This document shows, one piece after another, positions 34,701-63,950 of a DNA stretch of 64,000 nucleotides. The stretch's first letter is position 1. Each line of letters opens with the position of its first letter. The notes below the pieces were generated by a model. It did no database searches. It was not told the DNA's origin and saw nothing but the letters and a program-made list of their open reading frames with translations. Position numbers and translations under genes: made by a program. The stretch is from Patescibacteria group bacterium (GTDB lineage: Bacteria > Patescibacteriota > Patescibacteriia > Patescibacteriales > UBA12465). The DNA is taken from positions 134,861-198,860 of the forward strand of contig JALNZW010000001.1 in assembly GCA_023229115.1 (NCBI GenBank), written 5' to 3'.

Positions 34701-35729
34701 ATGTCTCCAGTAATTTTTGATAAAAAGAATATATTAGTTCTAGGCGGTGCCGGCTTTATTGGTTCCAACTTATGCGATGAGCTTATTAAAGATAATAAAG
34801 TTATTTGTGTCGATAATTTTTGTAGTAGTAATGTCAAAAATATTGAGCATCTTTTGTCTAATAGAGATTTTGTTTTTATAAATCATGATTTAACAGAAGA
34901 GTTAGATTTAGAAAACATGCCTGAGTTAAATAAATTTAAAATTTCTTTTCAGGGTGTTCAGGAAATTTATAATTTAGCCTGTCCAATGTCTCCTAGAAAT
35001 TTTGATCAAAACAAGCAAAAAATAGTTTTATCTAATTCTTCAGTTATTAAAAATGCTTTAAATATTGCCTTAAAATACAAATCTAGTTTTTTACAATTTT
35101 CTTCTTCGGTTGTTTATGGTTTGCGTGAGGATAGCTCAGACAAAAGTAAGGTTAAGGAGGAATTTATTGGAAATGTTAATTTTTTGAGTGAAAGAGCTTG
35201 TTATGATGAAGGAAAAAGATTTGCCGAAACAATGGTTAATACTTACAGAGAGGTTTTTGGCTTGGATGCTAAAATTATAAGATTATTTAGAACTTACGGA
35301 CCAAGAATGGCGCTAAGAGATGATCAGATGTTACCTGACTTTGTTAATAATGCTTTAAATGGTGACGATATAGTTATTTTTGGTGATGAAAGTTTTTCTT
35401 CTTCTCTTTGCTATGTAGATGACATGATTGACGCTGCTATTAAGGTGATGCGATCTGATATGTCTGGACCTTATAATGTTGGTTGCGAATCTGATGTTAA
35501 GTTGTATGACGTGGCCAAAATGATTGTTGATTTTACTAATTCTAAATCAAAAATTGTTTTTGAACCAAGCAAACTTTTCATGTCTCAATTGTTTATACCA
35601 GATACTTATAAGATTAGAAATCATTTTGGTTGGATGCCAGTTGTAACCCTAGAAAATGGTTTAAAGAAAACAATTCTTGATTTACAGGCCAATAAACAGA
35701 TGAGAACGATAGGATTGAATGGTTTTTAA
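34701..35729 (+). CDS. NAD-dependent sugar-nucleotide epimerase/dehydratase (UDP-glucuronate decarboxylase-like)
   Basis: VLGGAGFIGSNL Rossmann motif and YDEGKRFAETM (YxxxK) as in the UXS/extended SDR family. Confidence 0.8.
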   Translation: MSPVIFDKKNILVLGGAGFIGSNLCDELIKDNKVICVDNFCSSNVKNIEHLLSNRDFVFINHDLTEELDLENMPELNKFKISFQGVQEIYNLACPMSPRNFDQNKQKIVLSNSSVIKNALNIALKYKSSFLQFSSSVVYGLREDSSDKSKVKEEFIGNVNFLSERACYDEGKRFAETMVNTYREVFGLDAKIIRLFRTYGPRMALRDDQMLPDFVNNALNGDDIVIFGDESFSSSLCYVDDMIDAAIKVMRSDMSGPYNVGCESDVKLYDVAKMIVDFTNSKSKIVFEPSKLFMSQLFIPDTYKIRNHFGWMPVVTLENGLKKTILDLQANKQMRTIGLNGF

Positions 35730-35734
35730 GTTTC

Positions 35735-35763
35735 TTGTCTTTTAAATTAAATTGTTGTATAAT
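35735..35763 (+). promoter_or_regulatory. Promoter for the thrS leader (TTGTCT-17-TATAAT)
   Basis: TTGTCT at 35735-35740, a 17-nt spacer, and TATAAT at 35758-35763. Confidence 0.5.
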
Positions 35764-35769
35764 AATATT

Positions 35770-35965
35770 GTTAATTAAAATGATTGCTGTGATTACCAAC
35801 CACAGTTGTCTTTAGACAATTTTTACATTTGTAAAAACCAAATTTTGATTAATAAAAATTAAGTGGCCTCTTTTGAGGAAACTAGATGGAACCGCGGGAG
35901 AAATCTCGTTCTAGTAATTTATTATTTTTTTAAATTTTAAATTATTGGAGCGAGATTTTTTTATT
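35770..35965 (+). promoter_or_regulatory. T-box-like transcription-attenuation leader (putative Thr specifier ACC)
   Basis: T-box core AGAUGGAACCGCG at 35884-35896. The antiterminator is ACTAGA (35881-86), the 7-nt bulge TGGAACC (35887-93), an inner hairpin, then TCTAGT (35910-15). The competing terminator is 21 bp (35901-35921 with 35938-35958; 18 Watson-Crick and 3 G-U pairs) plus a T-run. Upstream hairpin CTGTG-AUUACCAAC-CACAG displays ACC at 35795-35797. Confidence 0.65.
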
Positions 35966-35986
35966 TATTATTTTAATTTAAATTAT

Positions 35987-37750
35987 ATGGAAAACAAAAA
36001 TGAAAAAAGTGAGTTAGAAATGCAAAGACATTCTTTAGCTCATATTATGGCTTTGGCTGTTATGCAAATTTATCCACAGGCTAAATTTGCGATTGGCCCA
36101 GATATTGATAATGGCTTTTATTATGATATTGATTTTTTTGATCAAAAAATAGGGGATAGTGAGCTAATAGAGATTGAGAAAAAAATGAAACACATTGTAA
36201 AACAAAATTTAAAGTTTGTTAAATCAAAAATAAATATTGACGAAGCTATTTCTAGGTTTGAAAAAAGTAATGATGTTTATAAAGTGGAAATTTTAAAAGA
36301 TTTAAAGTTAGATGGTGAGGCACTGGTTAGTCTTTATCAACTAGGTGATTTTGTTGATTTATGTCGTGGTCCACACATAGAGTCAACTGGTAAAATTAAA
36401 TTAGGTTCTTTCAAGCTAGATAAAATAGCTGGAGCTTATTGGAGGGGTGATGAAAAAAATAAAATGTTAACTAGAATTTATGGTTTAGCATTTTCTACTA
36501 AAGAAGAATTGGATGATTATGTAAAAATAATGGAGGAGGCTAAAAAAAGAAATCATCGAAAGTTAGGTCAAGAGTTAGATTTATTTTCGATTAGTGAGAA
36601 AGTTGGACCTGGATTGATATTGTGGCATCCTAAGTTATCAAAAGTTAGAGAAGCTGTTGAATCTTTTTGGAGAGAATTTCATCGAAAAAGGGGCTATGAT
36701 ACTGTTTATACTCCTCATATTGGTTTGGCTAAATTGTGGCAAACTAGTGGGCATTTAGGATTTTTTAAAGATTCTATGTATTCCCCAATGGATGTTGATG
36801 GAGAAAACTATTTTGTTAAACCAATGAACTGTCCTTTTCATGTTGAAATATATAAATCAAGGCCACGTTCTTGGAGGGAATTTCCTTTGCGCTGGAATGA
36901 GCTGGGATCTGTTTATCGTTACGAAAAAAGTGGAGAGCTGAGTGGGATGCTTAGAGTTCGTGGTTTTACTCAAGACGATGCTCATATAATTTGTCGTAAA
37001 GATCAATTTGCTGATGAATATCGTGAAGCTTTAAATCTTAGTTTTGAAATGTTTAAAACTTTTGGTTTTACAGATGTTAAGGGTTATCTAGCTGTTCGTG
37101 ATCCTAAAAATGTAGGTAATTATATGGGTGATAGTGAAATTTGGGATATGGCTGAAGAAACAATCAAAGAAGTTGTGTCCGAATTTGATATGCCTTATGA
37201 AATAGAGGAGGGTGGTGCTAAATTTTATGGGCCAGCTTTAGATATTAAAGTAAAAGATTCTATCGGCCGTGAATGGCAATTAACCACTATTCAACTTGAT
37301 CTAAATTTACCAGAAAAATTTGATATGATTTATAAAGGTCCGGAAAAAGATGAAAGACCTATCATGATTCATCGTGCTCTACTTGGTTCTTTGGAAAGAT
37401 TTTTTGGAGTTTTGATTGAACATTATGGCGGAGCTTTTCCTTTGTGGTTAGCTCCTTCTCAGGTGAGAATTTTATCAGTTGGTGAAAAACATATTGATTA
37501 TTGCAAAAAACTAAAACAAGAATTTTTAAATAGAGATATTAGAGCCGAACTTGATATTAATGATGAAACAGTCTCTAATAAGATTAGAAAGGCTGCCAAT
37601 GAAAAAGTTCCATATGTATTAGTTATCGGAGATAAAGAAATGGATGAAAATATTTTTGCAGTTAGAAAAAGAGGAAGTAATGATACTGAAATTTTTTCAC
37701 CCAATGATTTTTTTGAAACAATCTTAAAAGAAATAAAAGAAAAAATATAA
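35987..37750 (+). CDS. thrS: Threonyl-tRNA synthetase lacking the N-terminal TGS domain
   Basis: It starts directly at the editing-domain motif QRHSLAHIMA. Class II motifs include FRDSMY-like FKDSMYSPM, RVRGFTQDDAHIIC and HRALLGSLERF. I prefer ATG 35987 because TTG 35945 lies inside the leader terminator. Confidence 0.9.
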   Translation: MENKNEKSELEMQRHSLAHIMALAVMQIYPQAKFAIGPDIDNGFYYDIDFFDQKIGDSELIEIEKKMKHIVKQNLKFVKSKINIDEAISRFEKSNDVYKVEILKDLKLDGEALVSLYQLGDFVDLCRGPHIESTGKIKLGSFKLDKIAGAYWRGDEKNKMLTRIYGLAFSTKEELDDYVKIMEEAKKRNHRKLGQELDLFSISEKVGPGLILWHPKLSKVREAVESFWREFHRKRGYDTVYTPHIGLAKLWQTSGHLGFFKDSMYSPMDVDGENYFVKPMNCPFHVEIYKSRPRSWREFPLRWNELGSVYRYEKSGELSGMLRVRGFTQDDAHIICRKDQFADEYREALNLSFEMFKTFGFTDVKGYLAVRDPKNVGNYMGDSEIWDMAEETIKEVVSEFDMPYEIEEGGAKFYGPALDIKVKDSIGREWQLTTIQLDLNLPEKFDMIYKGPEKDERPIMIHRALLGSLERFFGVLIEHYGGAFPLWLAPSQVRILSVGEKHIDYCKKLKQEFLNRDIRAELDINDETVSNKIRKAANEKVPYVLVIGDKEMDENIFAVRKRGSNDTEIFSPNDFFETILKEIKEKI

Positions 37751-41471: not shown

Positions 41472-41495
41472 CATAATAAAACAAGATGCTATAAT
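41468..41495 (+). promoter_or_regulatory. Promoter for rplJ-rplL (TTGACA-16-TATAAT), overlapping the rlmN stop
   Basis: TTGACA at 41468-41473, a 16-nt spacer, and TATAAT at 41490-41495. Confidence 0.55.
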
Positions 41496-41501
41496 TAGCT
41501 A

Positions 41502-41646
41502 GTAAACTGCAGACAGTAAGCTTTTTGCTTTTTTGAGCAAATTTAAGACTTGCCGAGGTTTTAGATGAATAATTTTATCTATAATTTTGATTGTCTGCTG
41601 TTTAGCAGATTTTTTTATTTAGGTTAATAATTAAATTATAATATTT
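41502..41646 (+). promoter_or_regulatory. L10-leader-like autoregulatory attenuator
   Basis: A long-range helix pairs GCAGACA (41509-15) with TGTCTGC (41592-98). It is mutually exclusive with the terminator hairpin TCTGCT/AGCAGA (41594-41609) plus T7 (41610-16). The position upstream of rplJ matches known L10 leaders. Confidence 0.5.
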
Positions 41647-42171
41647 ATGCCAAAAAACAAAGAGCAAAAAAGAGATATTTTGGCCGACTTAAAAGATAAA
41701 ATAAGTCGTTCTAAATCTATTGTTTTTACAACTTTTGACGCTTTAGGTGTTAAAGACAATGAAGAACTGAGAAAAAGTTTAAAAAAAGAAAATGGTGAAT
41801 ACTATGTTTCTAAAAAGACTTTAATGGATATTGCTTTTAAAGATAGTAATATTTCTGACTTGGATATTAAGAATTTACCAGGAAAGGTGGCTGTTGTGTT
41901 CGCTTACGAGGATGAAGTTTCTCCAGCTAAAGTTGTTTTTAATTTTAAAAAGGACAAAGAAGGAAAAATTTCTTTTGTTGGCGGTGTTTTGGATGGTAAT
42001 TTTATTAGCGCCTCTGAGGTTGAAAATTTAGCTCAGTTACCAAGCAAACAAGAGCTTTATGCTAAGGTTGTTGGCTCTTTGAATGCTCCAGTTTCTGGCT
42101 TCGTTAACGTTTTGGCCGGCAACATTAGAGGTTTGGTTAATGTTTTAAAAGCTGTTAGTGAAAAAAAATAA
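41647..42171 (+). CDS. rplJ: 50S ribosomal protein L10
   Basis: 174 aa, typical L10 sequence, upstream of rplL. Confidence 0.93.
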   Translation: MPKNKEQKRDILADLKDKISRSKSIVFTTFDALGVKDNEELRKSLKKENGEYYVSKKTLMDIAFKDSNISDLDIKNLPGKVAVVFAYEDEVSPAKVVFNFKKDKEGKISFVGGVLDGNFISASEVENLAQLPSKQELYAKVVGSLNAPVSGFVNVLAGNIRGLVNVLKAVSEKK

Positions 42172-42238
42172 TAATAAATAATAAATTAATTTTTTAGAAT
42201 ATTTTAATTAAATTAAATATTCTAAATTAAAAAAAATT

Positions 42239-42643
42239 ATGTCAGAAGAAAAAAAGGTAGTTGAAGTTCCAGCTAAATTTCAATCTTTAGTATCTGAGAT
42301 TGAAAAAATGAGCGTTTTAGATTTAGCTGAGCTTGTAAAAATTTTAGAAGAAAAATTTGGTGTTTCAGCCGCTGCTCCAGCTATGATGATGGGAGCTGCT
42401 CCAGCTGCTGGTGCTGTTGCTGCAGAAGAAAAATCTAGCTTCGATGTTGAATTAACTGATAGCGGAGCTAATAAAATTGCTGTTATCAAGGTTGTAAGAG
42501 AAATCACTGAAATGGGTTTAAAAGAAGCTAAAGATTTAGTAGATGCTGCTCCAAAAATGATTAAAGAAGGTTTGAAAAAAGAGGAAGCTGAAGAAGTTAA
42601 AAAGAAATTAGAAGAAGCTGGTGGAAAAGTTACTTTAAAGTAA
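42239..42643 (+). CDS. rplL: 50S ribosomal protein L7/L12
   Basis: Ala-rich hinge, and a C-terminal domain with [24 protein letters not shown]...[11 protein letters not shown]. Confidence 0.95.
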
Positions 42644-61780: not shown

Positions 61781-62431
61781 TTAAGCGCTAACTTTTATAC
61801 CTTTACCCATTGTTGAGTTTAAACTGATATTTCTAATGTAAACACCCTTTGAAGAAGATGGTTTGGCTTTTTTAATAGCATCTAATAAGGTGTTAAAGTT
61901 TTCTTCTAAATCTTTTTTATCAAAACTAACTTTTCCAATAATAGCATGAACATTGCCGGTGTCGTCATTTTTAAAGCTAATTTTACCTTTTTTTAATTCT
62001 TTAACAGCTTTAGCTGGGTTATTGGTAACAGTTTCATTTTTAGGGGAAGGCATTAAACCTCTTGTTCCTAAAATTTTAGCAATTTTAGCTAAATTTTTCA
62101 TCATATCTATTTCGGCAATAGCGATATCGAAATTAGTTTTTTCACTTTTTTTAATTTCTTCAATCAATTCATCACCACCAACTAAGTCAGCTCCAGCCTC
62201 CTTAACTTCTTTTTCTTTAGCAGAAGATACAAAAGCAGCTATTCTAACTGTTTTTCCTGTTCCATTTGGCAAGCTAACAGCTGATCTTACTTGTTGATCT
62301 CCTTTTTTGTTATCAATACCTAGGCGAAAATGAACCTCTACAGAAGCATCAAATTTAGCCTTGTGATTAGCTTTGCAAATCTCAATAGCCTCAGCAATTG
62401 AATAAGTTTTTTCTTTGTCAAAATTTTCCAT
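61781..62431 (-). CDS. rplA: 50S ribosomal protein L1
   Basis: YSIAEAIEICKAN..KFDASVEVHFRLGID..., GTGKTVRIAVF-like block. I prefer ATG 62431 (MENFDKEK) over GTG 62467. Confidence 0.93.
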   Translation of the reverse strand: MENFDKEKTYSIAEAIEICKANHKAKFDASVEVHFRLGIDNKKGDQQVRSAVSLPNGTGKTVRIAAFVSSAKEKEVKEAGADLVGGDELIEEIKKSEKTNFDIAIAEIDMMKNLAKIAKILGTRGLMPSPKNETVTNNPAKAVKELKKGKISFKNDDTGNVHAIIGKVSFDKKDLEENFNTLLDAIKKAKPSSSKGVYIRNISLNSTMGKGIKVSA

Positions 62432-62468
62432 AGTTTTTTGTGGTAATAGCGAATAAAATTCTCCCACA

Positions 62469-62921
62469 TTATTTATTAATTTTATTTTCGTAAAGTGAAT
62501 TTAAAATATTTATTGCTTCTATTATTTTTTCTAGTCTTTTAATTGTTTCTTGTGAATAATCAAAACCTCTTTTTCCGTTTATTGAGCTTTGAAGTACAAA
62601 ATCAATATTTTCAATTAAACAGTTTTTTATTTTGAATAAATTATCATCATGTTTTAAATCATTTTTTTTATTATTAAAATGATTTAATTCTTGATTTTCT
62701 GGATGCTCTTTAATTCTTTCTCTTAATAGGGCAATAATATCTTGTGATTTGTTTTTAATGAAACTTATACTAGAATTTAAATTTTCTCTTCTCTCTTTTT
62801 TATTTATTATAGAGAGTAGAAAATTGACTTCTTTCCTTAATTCAATAATCGTTTTTTGAAACAAAACCCTTTCTTTAAAATCTTTGTCGAAGTCACTTCT
62901 AGCTATTTTTTCATTATTCAT
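62469..62921 (-). CDS. Orphan helical protein inserted between rplK and rplA
   Basis: 150-aa ORF from ATG 62921 (MNNEKIARSDF...), 10 nt after the rplK stop and ending 37 nt before the rplA ATG. I recognise no family. The track start 62972 would overlap rplK. Confidence 0.55.
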   Translation of the reverse strand: MNNEKIARSDFDKDFKERVLFQKTIIELRKEVNFLLSIINKKERRENLNSSISFIKNKSQDIIALLRERIKEHPENQELNHFNNKKNDLKHDDNLFKIKNCLIENIDFVLQSSINGKRGFDYSQETIKRLEKIIEAINILNSLYENKINK

Positions 62922-62931
62922 AAAAATATCA

Positions 62932-63354
62932 CTATTTGATTTCAACCCCCATTTGTCTGGCTGTACCAGCAATAATTTTCATAGCAGCTTCTATGTCGTC
63001 AGTATTTAAATCTGACATTTTTAACTTAGCTATTTCTGCTAATTGTTCTTTATTAATAGAAGCTACCTTTTGACTTAATGGTTTGCCTGATCCTTTTTGA
63101 ATTTTGGCAATTTTTTTAATTAATTCAGATGCTGGAGGTGATTTCATTATAAAATCAAAAGTTCTGTCTTCATAAACACTGATTTCAACTGGGGTTATTT
63201 CTCCCATTCTATCTCTACTAGCATCATTAAATTTAGAACAAAAATCTTGGATATTTAAACCGTGCTGTCCTAAAGCTGGACCAACCGGAGGAGCAGGATT
63301 AGCTTGACCAGCTGGAATCTGTAATTTTATTTTGGTTAATAATTTTTTAGCCAT
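62932..63354 (-). CDS. rplK: 50S ribosomal protein L11
   Basis: [35 protein letters not shown] is the invariant L11 N-terminal domain. Confidence 0.96.
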
Positions 63355-63404
63355 ATTTTTAATTTATATGATTTGAGAAGCAAACTCTTAGGAGTTCCAA
63401 ATCT

Positions 63405-63950
63405 TTATATTTTTTTAATTTGTAAAAAGTCTAATTCAACTGGAGTTTCTCGACCAAACATGGAAACATTAACTTTTATTTTTCCTTTCGATTCATCAAT
63501 ATTAATAATTTTACCTTCAAAATTTTTAAATGGACCATCTGTAATTTTTACAGTTTCTCCTTCGATAACGTCAATTTTAAACTTTGGCTCTTCTACTCCC
63601 ATTCTTTTCATTAAGCCTTGAACTTCTTTTTCACTAATTGGAGTAGGAACCGTTCCGACACCAATAAAACCAGTAACATTTGGGGTATTTCTAACTATAT
63701 ACCAAGATTCATCAGTTACTATCATTTCAACTAGAACATAACCAGGGAATATTTTTTCTTCAATAACCTTTCTTTTGCCGTTTTTTATTTTTATTTTTTT
63801 TTCAGTTGGAACTAATACATTAAAAATTTTATCGCCAGCATCAAGTGTTTCTATTCTTTGTTTTAAATTGTGGGCGACATTTTCTTCGTAACCAGAATAG
63901 GTGTGAAGAACGTACCATCTTTTACCTTGGTCTAAATTTTGTTTAGCCAT
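63405..63950 (-). CDS. nusG: Transcription termination/antitermination factor NusG
   Basis: WYVLHTYSGYEENV NGN start and KOW motif GETVKITDGPFKNFEGKI. Confidence 0.95.
   Translation of the reverse strand: MAKQNLDQGKRWYVLHTYSGYEENVAHNLKQRIETLDAGDKIFNVLVPTEKKIKIKNGKRKVIEEKIFPGYVLVEMIVTDESWYIVRNTPNVTGFIGVGTVPTPISEKEVQGLMKRMGVEEPKFKIDVIEGETVKITDGPFKNFEGKIINIDESKGKIKVNVSMFGRETPVELDFLQIKKI

Follow-up and report, generated by a model that had tools for sequence, protein, structure and literature searches.

A compact T-box-like leader upstream of thrS in a Patescibacteria group genome and its relatives

T-boxes are the textbook case of RNA–RNA sensing, and their known range is mostly the Firmicutes and the Actinobacteria, with a few neighbouring phyla. 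The locus described here raises the question of whether a T-box with a much reduced 5′ part could control thrS, the gene for threonyl-tRNA synthetase (ThrRS), in a bacterium of the Candidate Phyla Radiation (CPR). It lies in a 64-kb stretch of contig JALNZW010000001.1 of Patescibacteria group bacterium (assembly GCA_023229115.1). This whole stretch is called the window, and coordinates given without a locus number refer to its plus strand. Direct reading places the leader in a 260-nt gap between a gene for an NAD-dependent epimerase (34701–35729) and thrS. A first-pass annotation, made from the letters alone, had proposed a T-box-like riboswitch there. On the sequence evidence presented below we judge, with a probability of roughly 80%, that the leader is a functional T-box that would sense tRNA-Thr and control thrS by transcription attenuation, and that it follows a compact plan that appears not to have been catalogued previously.

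A complete T-box discriminator, consisting of AAGUG, Stem III, AA and the antiterminator, is found within 35768–35962, and thrS follows directly downstream. The purine motif RRRNG...AA around Stem III is part of the definition of a T-box (PMC7778990; motif definitions also in PMC11297988); in the window Stem III is preceded by AAGUG and followed by AA (35879–35880). The antiterminator drawn in the first-pass annotation, with helix A1, the 7-nt bulge UGGAACC and an inner hairpin, was recovered as drawn. Its 3′ half serves also as the 5′ arm of an intrinsic terminator, which makes the two structures mutually exclusive, as in a T-box switch. The 21-bp terminator proposed earlier holds as well, with 21 of 21 positions of the core arms paired (three of them G-U) and a U-run behind them, while minimum free energy (MFE) folding extends the hairpin to 35897–35962 at −29.8 kcal/mol. 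The start codon of thrS lies 25 nt past the end of the terminator and is left unsequestered, so the leader has no pair of sequestrator and anti-sequestrator at a ribosome-binding site (RBS).

The leader (206 nt) has an MFE of −61.5 kcal/mol, compared with −31.6 ± 3.5 kcal/mol for 200 dinucleotide shuffles (z = −8.6). Among 4227 Rfam families searched over the window the best match was the T-box family RF00230 (34.8 bits, E = 4.6e-4; E = 2.9e-6 when only the 401 nt of 35650–36050 were scanned). Together, the fold statistics and the identity of the best match show that the leader is more than a chance structure. The score is nevertheless far below the gathering threshold of 93 bits for RF00230, as had been anticipated, and at gathering thresholds Rfam reports no match in the window; the T-box is visible only in E-value mode. 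Confident placement in the alignment to RF00230 is limited to Stem III and the antiterminator, and the interior of Stem I is represented by 27 nt versus 72 nt in the model. We observed the same when RF00230 was run on 20 member loci of the family described below: 15 gave a match, with scores from 25.6 to 50.7 bits, all below 93. A full-length canonical T-box upstream of a homologous Chloroflexi thrS (L010:9686–9916) scored 92.9 bits and served as positive control; its internal Specifier Loop likewise carries ACC, and its bulge UGGA.

The low score goes along with missing parts. A long Stem I, with its kink-turn (K-turn), internal Specifier Loop with S-turn and AG-bulge/distal-loop platform for the tRNA elbow, is not evident in the leader; in its place we found a conserved 6-bp hairpin set in a four-way junction, with no platform-like conserved loops. 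Neither a Stem II S-turn nor a Stem IIA/B pseudoknot (F-box) is evident, as there is no AGUA/GAA-type internal loop and no CCGUUA-like F-box. A Stem II with S-turn and a Stem IIA/B pseudoknot are present in all but glycine T-boxes. The features of the leader are collected in Table 1.

Table 1. Features of the thrS leader and its surroundings (window coordinates)
Feature	Position	Strand	Sequence	Remarks
Promoter-like site	35735–35763	+	TTGTCT (−35), 17-nt spacer, TATAAT (−10)	10/12 consensus matches
P1, 5′ strand	35768–35781	+	UUGUUAAUUAAAAU	14 bp with 35842–35855; in MFE folds; closes decoding domain
Junction strand J1	35782–35786	+	GAUUG	Single-stranded; invariant in 10/10 leaders found by ThrRS homology
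P2, specifier hairpin	35787–35805	+	CUGUGA/UUACCAA/CCACAG	6-bp stem; loop 35793–35799
P3 hairpin	35806–35819	+	(U)UGUC-UUUA-GACA(A)	In MFE folds; sequence and length variable in family
P4 hairpin	35820–35837	+	UUUUUAC-AUUU-GUAAAAA	In MFE folds; sequence and length variable in family
Junction strand J4	35838–35841	+	CCAA	CUAA in most relatives
P1, 3′ strand	35842–35855	+	AUUUUGAUUAAUAA	Directly before linker
Linker	35856–35866	+	AAAUUAAGUGG	Purine motif RRRNG = AAGUG 35861–35865; 'RAG' = AAG 35861–35863
Stem III	35867–35878	+	CCUC-UUUU-GAGG	Aligned to RF00230 Stem III
AA spacer and antiterminator	35879–35915	+		A1, bulge and A2; high-posterior alignment to RF00230 T-box core
Helix A1	35881–35886 with 35910–35915	+	ACUAGA/UCUAGU	Terminal A-U bracketed as (A)CUAGA/UCUAG(U)
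T-box bulge	35887–35893	+	UGGAACC	7 nt; between A1 and A2
Helix A2	35894–35898 with 35905–35909	+	GCGGG/CUCGU	Inner hairpin 35894–35909
Intrinsic terminator	35897–35962	+		21–25 bp; core arms 35901–35921 with 35938–35958; U-run 35956–35962
thrS	35987–37750	+		Threonyl-tRNA synthetase, 587 aa; Pfam tRNA_SAD, tRNA-synt_2b, HGTP_anticodon; regulated gene

The closest relatives of the window ThrRS are encoded in CPR genomes (96%, 90% and 83% identity); the 83% identical protein belongs to the closest named relative, Candidatus Falkowbacteria HGW-1 (Patescibacteria/Parcubacteria group), which agrees with the earlier remark that the genome looked CPR-like. With ThrRS as the query and each species represented by one genome, a scan yielded 27 loci. 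Ten full leaders with the layout seen in the window were identified in this way (L001–L006, L008 from Nealsonbacteria, L012 from Uhrbacteria, L014), along with an eleventh, L025, whose 5′ end is missing. Invariant in the ten are GAUUG, ACCAA, C-N-AA, the AAU-N-AAG of the linker and UGGAACCGC. When RNAalifold was applied to a plain MAFFT alignment of these leaders, it predicted P2, Stem III, A1 and A2; of the 25 pairs predicted, 12 showed compensatory changes.

To this set, metagenomes added many more sequences. The search pattern prescribed GATTG, a single T and a pair of A's in the loop, AATNAAG and TGGNACCGC; the triplet and the N of UGGN were both left free, and at least 119 loci matched. 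Among the matches listed, 61 had complementary 6-nt arms around a 7-nt loop, and in these the free triplet was ACC 61 times out of 61 and the bulge began with UGGA in 60; the 58 listed matches without the hairpin had no consistent triplet. A covariance model (R1), built from four close sequences and a hand-drawn structure, recovered 71 leaders from the window and the related loci, 62 of them distinct. The design thus occurs in at least 60 related lineages without cultured members. The family comprises members from Falkow-, Nealson- and Uhrbacteria genomes and from metagenomes, the taxonomy of the metagenomic members being taken from ThrRS similarity.

Although the ThrRS proteins that go with the 62 distinct sequences are only 42–96% identical, the structure of the leaders is maintained. 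In an alignment fitted to the model structure 93.3% of cells were paired, versus 59.2% after shuffling and 37–47% with slid partners, and the covariation score was 0.70, versus 0.19 and at most 0.11, respectively. Changes on both sides were seen at 42 of the 46 pairs, namely at all pairs of P1 (14/14), P3 (4/4, with 96% of cells paired), P4 (7/7, 94% paired) and Stem III (4/4, 96.5% paired) and at most pairs of P2, A1 and A2; the last two helices covary both in the RNAalifold prediction and in the family alignment. The first-pass annotation had named covariation in relatives as a check on its proposal, and this check came out in its favour. The transcription-termination output proposed earlier also appears to extend to the relatives: all 61 of 61 distinct members have a hairpin with a U-run downstream of the bulge, and at least 57 clearly contain the 3′ strands of A2 and A1 in it, which suggests that the family uses transcription termination. 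In every member with enough downstream DNA thrS is located 45–608 nt downstream of the antiterminator.

As to the specifier, the hairpin CUGUG-AUUACCAAC-CACAG presents the Thr codon ACC (35795–35797) followed by AA in its terminal loop, just as had been read earlier, and the codon matches the regulated gene. The position in a terminal loop is atypical of a T-box; still, ACC followed by A is found in all 62 members. The geometry of a 6-bp stem with a 7-nt loop is kept in all 61 metagenomic members listed, while the arms are diverse yet complementary (four to six pair types at each of the model pairs 37–42). The loop reads N-Y-ACC-A-A and thus has the layout of an anticodon loop, with a pyrimidine before the triplet and a purine after it.

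The first-pass annotation had described this hairpin in a compact element of about 190 nt with a reduced Stem I. The compactness and the reduction stand. The decoding domain is more than a lone hairpin: MFE folds show helix P1, overlooked before, enclosing P2, P3 and P4 in a closed four-way junction. An alignment-free test, with permutation of the 5′ tetramers, was made for P1. In 51 of 61 members (84%) the tetramer just before GAUUG pairs with the tetramer just after C(U/C)AA, versus 17% when permuted, with 26 distinct 3-bp combinations. The likely transcript start, predicted from the promoter-like site, is at ∼35770 (35769–35771), which is the foot of P1, and a remnant of an AUAAU-like −10 box is seen at constant distance 5′ of P1 throughout the family alignment.

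The only invariant residues of the junction are GAUUG and C(U/C)AA. The C-Y-A-A of J4 was outside the search pattern; it is conserved all the same and always abuts the 3′ strand of P1. The GAU and UAA beside a helix look like the UAA/GAN internal-loop motif, and may possibly form one of this type. No conserved loop or internal-loop sequence was found in P3 or P4 in the family alignment, and the stem of P4 ranges from ∼3 to ∼19 bp among members. A pair G35786-U35806, suggested by MFE and RNAalifold, was rejected as these positions are unpaired in 22 of the 62 sequences; a further Thr codon that might be read from the 3′ junction strand (A-CC-A in the window, ACU-A in many relatives) was rejected as well, the preceding base being unconserved.

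If the triplet in the hairpin loop is the specifier, it should change whenever the synthetase under control is for another amino acid. Such a change was observed in a match of R1 with 35.5 bits (L066:1947–2072) on the JGI contig Ga0208373_1001014, where the element spans 1947–2110. Its discriminator is near-identical to that of the window (AAACUAGAUGGAACCGCGG...UCGUUCUAGU) and is followed by a strong terminator. Its P1 (AUAUCAAU/AUUGAUAU) encloses a single hairpin, GGGG-AGAUUGGCA-CCCU, without P3 and P4, and the 9-nt terminal loop of this hairpin carries GGC followed by A. The downstream open reading frame (ORF) encodes a glycyl-tRNA synthetase (GlyRS), whose named homologues are glycine–tRNA ligases of Parcubacteria and Patescibacteria. 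The specifier assignment is thereby supported. With regard to other specificities, all hairpin-bearing matches listed carried ACC in spite of the free codon; the covariance model search of the window and related loci, matches without the hairpin included, returned only thrS leaders, locus L031 and the Gly variant; and a regular-expression scan for T-box cores gave nothing further.

On the established model of T-box action, tRNA-Thr would pair with ACC through its anticodon GGU. Given the size and layout of the loop, which are those of an anticodon loop, the contact is expected to be a loop–loop kissing complex, similar to an anticodon–anticodon one. The 3′ NCCA of an uncharged tRNA would pair with UGGA in the bulge and stack on Stem III and the purines; this contact would stabilise the antiterminator and RNA polymerase would read into thrS. 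With charged Thr-tRNA the contact would be impossible and the terminator would form. From UGGA one can predict that the discriminator base of the tRNA-Thr is U73. One could speculate further that the tRNA elbow is probably left uncontacted, as there is no K-turn, distal platform, S-turn or pseudoknot, and that the junction residues GAUUG/CUAA together with P3 and P4 may act as a rigid hinge that points the linker and P1 towards the acceptor end. Since P3 and P4 are unconserved and variable in length while P2 always has 6 bp, the junction is more likely to be such a hinge than a second contact with the tRNA. Possibly, P3 and P4 also aid the weaker ACC–GGU pairing, as both are absent from the Gly sibling with its GGC. 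The lack of Stem II in glyQS T-boxes has been attributed to the strength of GGC–GCC pairing (PMC7583486).

Comparison with known systems shows what is shared and what is not. With canonical class I T-boxes (RF00230; e.g. tyrS and thrS of Bacillus subtilis) the CPR leader has in common the purine linker, Stem III, AA, A1, UGGNACC, A2 and a terminator with U-run, as well as the logic of a C-ending codon followed by a purine with an aminoacyl-tRNA synthetase gene downstream. It differs in having the codon in a 7-nt terminal loop, in a four-way junction closed by the 5′ end of the transcript, and in lacking the long Stem I. The glyQS T-boxes likewise combine a minimal plan with a synthetase gene and termination, and the Gly sibling L066 is similar to them in having no extra hairpins; still, the Stem I of glyQS is of full length and has a K-turn, an internal Specifier Loop and an elbow platform, unlike that of the CPR leaders.

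The first-pass annotation had likened the element to the ultrashort Stem I T-boxes of Actinobacteria; an example of these is the T-box of ileS in Mycobacterium tuberculosis. Common to both are a short Stem I without elbow platform, a specifier at its end, and extra helices 3′ of Stem I within the decoding module. The ileS T-boxes are described as translational, Ile-specific and actinobacterial, with a sequestered RBS, and as dependent on a long Stem II with a conserved S-turn and on a pseudoknot between Stem IIA/B and the linker (PMC7583486, citing Sherwood et al. 2015; PMC11297988). The likeness therefore holds for the terminal specifier and the short Stem I and fails for the Stem II S-turn and the pseudoknot, and the actinobacterial type is only a partial analogue. 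In the CPR leader P3 and P4 are short and variable, P1 instead of a pseudoknot closes the module, the output element is a terminator, the codon is for Thr and the hosts are CPR bacteria.

It may be, at slightly better than even odds in our estimate, that the leaders form a distinct and widespread CPR/Patescibacteria class of T-boxes: terminating, contacting the tRNA by kissing through an anticodon-loop-like hairpin in a four-way junction, independent of the parts regarded as essential to transcriptional T-boxes (K-turn, elbow platform, Stem II S-turn, pseudoknot), accompanied by a simpler, one-hairpin Gly version, and unrecognised because its members score far below the Rfam threshold. Under older, lower thresholds of Rfam, some members might have been picked up as generic T-boxes. 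A literature search, itself of incomplete coverage, returned no paper linking T-boxes with CPR, Patescibacteria or Parcubacteria.

Could the leader be something other than a tRNA-sensing attenuator? In Escherichia coli, thrS is controlled by a translational operator: ThrRS binds to mimics of the anticodon arm in its own mRNA. A similar autoregulation could be imagined here, with the same gene and with a leader hairpin having anticodon-arm dimensions (7-nt loop), and in one locus (L115) ARAGORN even called a tRNA-Thr(ggt) on the antisense strand. The sense RNA, however, shows the codon ACC and not an anticodon GGU, UGU or CGU; the look-alike exists in antisense only. The loop of the E. coli operator is anticodon-like and read by a protein, while the CPR leader, with its codon, T-box bulge and terminator, is expected to be read by tRNA. 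A ThrRS operator would leave the UGGAACC bulge, Stem III and the terminator switch unexplained, the Gly sibling has GGC before GlyRS, and the hairpin is situated ∼190 nt upstream of the start codon rather than beside the RBS; we regard this explanation as very unlikely. Nearly the same low probability, if slightly lower, is given to a decaying remnant of a canonical T-box, functionless or acting as a constitutive attenuator. The modest Rfam score with Stem I mostly unaligned would fit such decay, as would the two related CPR genomes (L007 and L009, both Patescibacteria) that have no leader of any kind before thrS. Under erosion, though, the closing helix and a hairpin of constant 6-bp/7-nt size would not persist, nor would the invariant loop triplet, GAUUG and CUAA, and it is the reduced 5′ domain itself that is conserved and covaries across the 62 distinct sequences.

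Attenuation by a leader peptide is hardly credible. There is an ORF at 35780–35815 (MIAVITNHSCL*) with the ACC in frame, at which a ribosome could stall, yet its AUG is replaced by ACG, GCG, GUG, AAG or AGA in relatives, it has one Thr codon and no Shine–Dalgarno sequence, and the region is taken up by conserved helices. The alternative with the most weight, although still unlikely, accepts a genuine T-box and differs in the output, which would be translation or RNA stability, or in the use of P3 and P4 to contact the elbow. The short-Stem-I T-boxes known so far are all translational (PMC7583486, PMC11297988), and no Thr member lacks P3 or P4. A translational output is hard to reconcile with a hairpin and U-run competing with the antiterminator in every member and with a thrS start located at least 25 nt beyond it and unsequestered. 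As for the elbow, the P3 and P4 loops have no conserved T-loop-like sequence, and stems of ∼3 to 19 bp hardly fit a precise dock. We therefore retain tRNA-Thr-dependent transcription attenuation as the best explanation.

Several observations weigh against this conclusion. According to published work, transcriptional T-boxes need a long Stem I that binds the elbow (PMC7583486), so that a termination-based T-box without one is mechanistically unproven. Apart from the antisense call in L115, ARAGORN found no tRNA-Thr gene in the window, in 146 loci (1.23 Mb) or in six loci around the end genes of the window, which extend as far as 10 kb past it, 1.3 Mb in total. The pair-count alignment was fitted to the model structure and its paired fraction is inflated; alignment-free checks, i.e. 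the 6+7+6 geometry of P2 and the anchored test of P1, were added for this reason. GAUUG, Y33, A37A38, AAUNAAG and UGG-ACCGC were fixed in the metagenome pattern, and their invariance rests on the 10 homology-derived leaders only. In single-sequence folds P1 is only moderately above shuffles (a median of 9 versus 5 pairs), the leaders being A/U-rich, and the anchored test is relied on instead. Finally, the covariation between codon and gene rests on a single Gly example, all other members being Thr, and no T-box was found before eight other close CPR GlyRS homologues that were followed to their contigs.

With these leaders, the range of T-boxes reaches at least three Parcubacteria lineages of the CPR. 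Reviews state that termination T-boxes generally need the elbow platform of a long Stem I for fast capture of tRNA (PMC7583486) and that a short Stem I goes with translational control and with Stem II and the pseudoknot (PMC7583486, PMC11297988). The CPR Thr leaders are an apparent natural exception, in which a terminator appears to be under the control of ∼150 nt with a specifier hairpin of 6 bp. As a natural minimal system they would make the kinetic and structural needs of co-transcriptional tRNA sensing directly testable, and the compact module is suited to structural work and engineering. The covariance model R1 can also improve the annotation of CPR genomes, as the Rfam cut-off misses every member tested.

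Annotation of tRNA genes may be affected as well. The 'tRNA-Thr(ggt)' called at L115:138–213 (+) is an artefact: it is antisense to the T-box at 36–198 (−) of the same locus and corresponds to the reverse complement of the specifier hairpin, which is a perfect look-alike of an anticodon arm. In such genomes, spurious tRNA-Thr genes may thus have been annotated automatically on the strand facing a thrS leader. An origin of the leader from an antisense tRNA-Thr gene was considered and rejected, since an antisense cloverleaf would have the codon-bearing arm as the middle hairpin, not the first. No tRNA gene of any kind was found in the window or in the flanking DNA covered, which reached as far as 10 kb to the right and ∼4.5 kb to the left.

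Some members of the family differ in what follows the leader. In L063 and L138 an ORF similar to GNAT-type acetyltransferases separates the leader from thrS; such an ORF comes after the leader in L083 and L119 too, on contigs that stop short of any thrS. The leader of L109 is followed by an ORF similar to D-aminoacyl-tRNA deacylase. Two Thr leaders in series (556–720 and 1480–1690) are present on the contig of L068, the first of them before an ORF other than thrS. The database titles of L001, L004–L007 and L014 read 'uncultured Gammaproteobacteria bacterium', while their ThrRS proteins are 62–96% identical to that of the Falkowbacteria-like genome; this looks like a taxonomic mislabel. The window ThrRS starts at the editing-domain motif HSLAHIMA, and Pfam did not detect an N-terminal TGS domain in it; the short form is seen also in all relatives aligned from residue 1–14.

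A different leader of thrS, conserved, ∼90 nt long and without a T-box core, was observed in Peribacteria (L013:9900–10000) and Gracilibacteria (L026:7240–7340). It reads ...GACUGUGAAC-ACAU--UAAUCGUUU-AGAG-ACUUU... and ends in a terminator, CUCACC-UUUS-GGUGAG-U7; it may be another, uncharacterised regulatory RNA of thrS.

Elsewhere in the window and at its borders we noted the arrangement of ribosomal protein genes. The left end adjoins the end of the ribosomal protein supercluster (rpsM...rplQ, rplM, rpsI in L147/L148). At the right end, on the minus strand, lies nusG-rplK-(150-aa ORF)-rplA (61781–63950), with secE just past the end (L151). The genes rplJ-rplL are found on the plus strand (41647–42643), ∼20 kb from rplK-rplA, and the usual rplKAJL cluster is thus split. 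Directly upstream of rplJ (41647–42171) and rplL (42239–42643), both confirmed by Pfam, the stretch 41489–41626 (+) matches the ribosomal protein L10 leader RF00557 with 35.9 bits, the gathering score being 44; it is likely to be a genuine L10/L12 autoregulatory leader missed by the Rfam cut-off in an A/T-rich genome.

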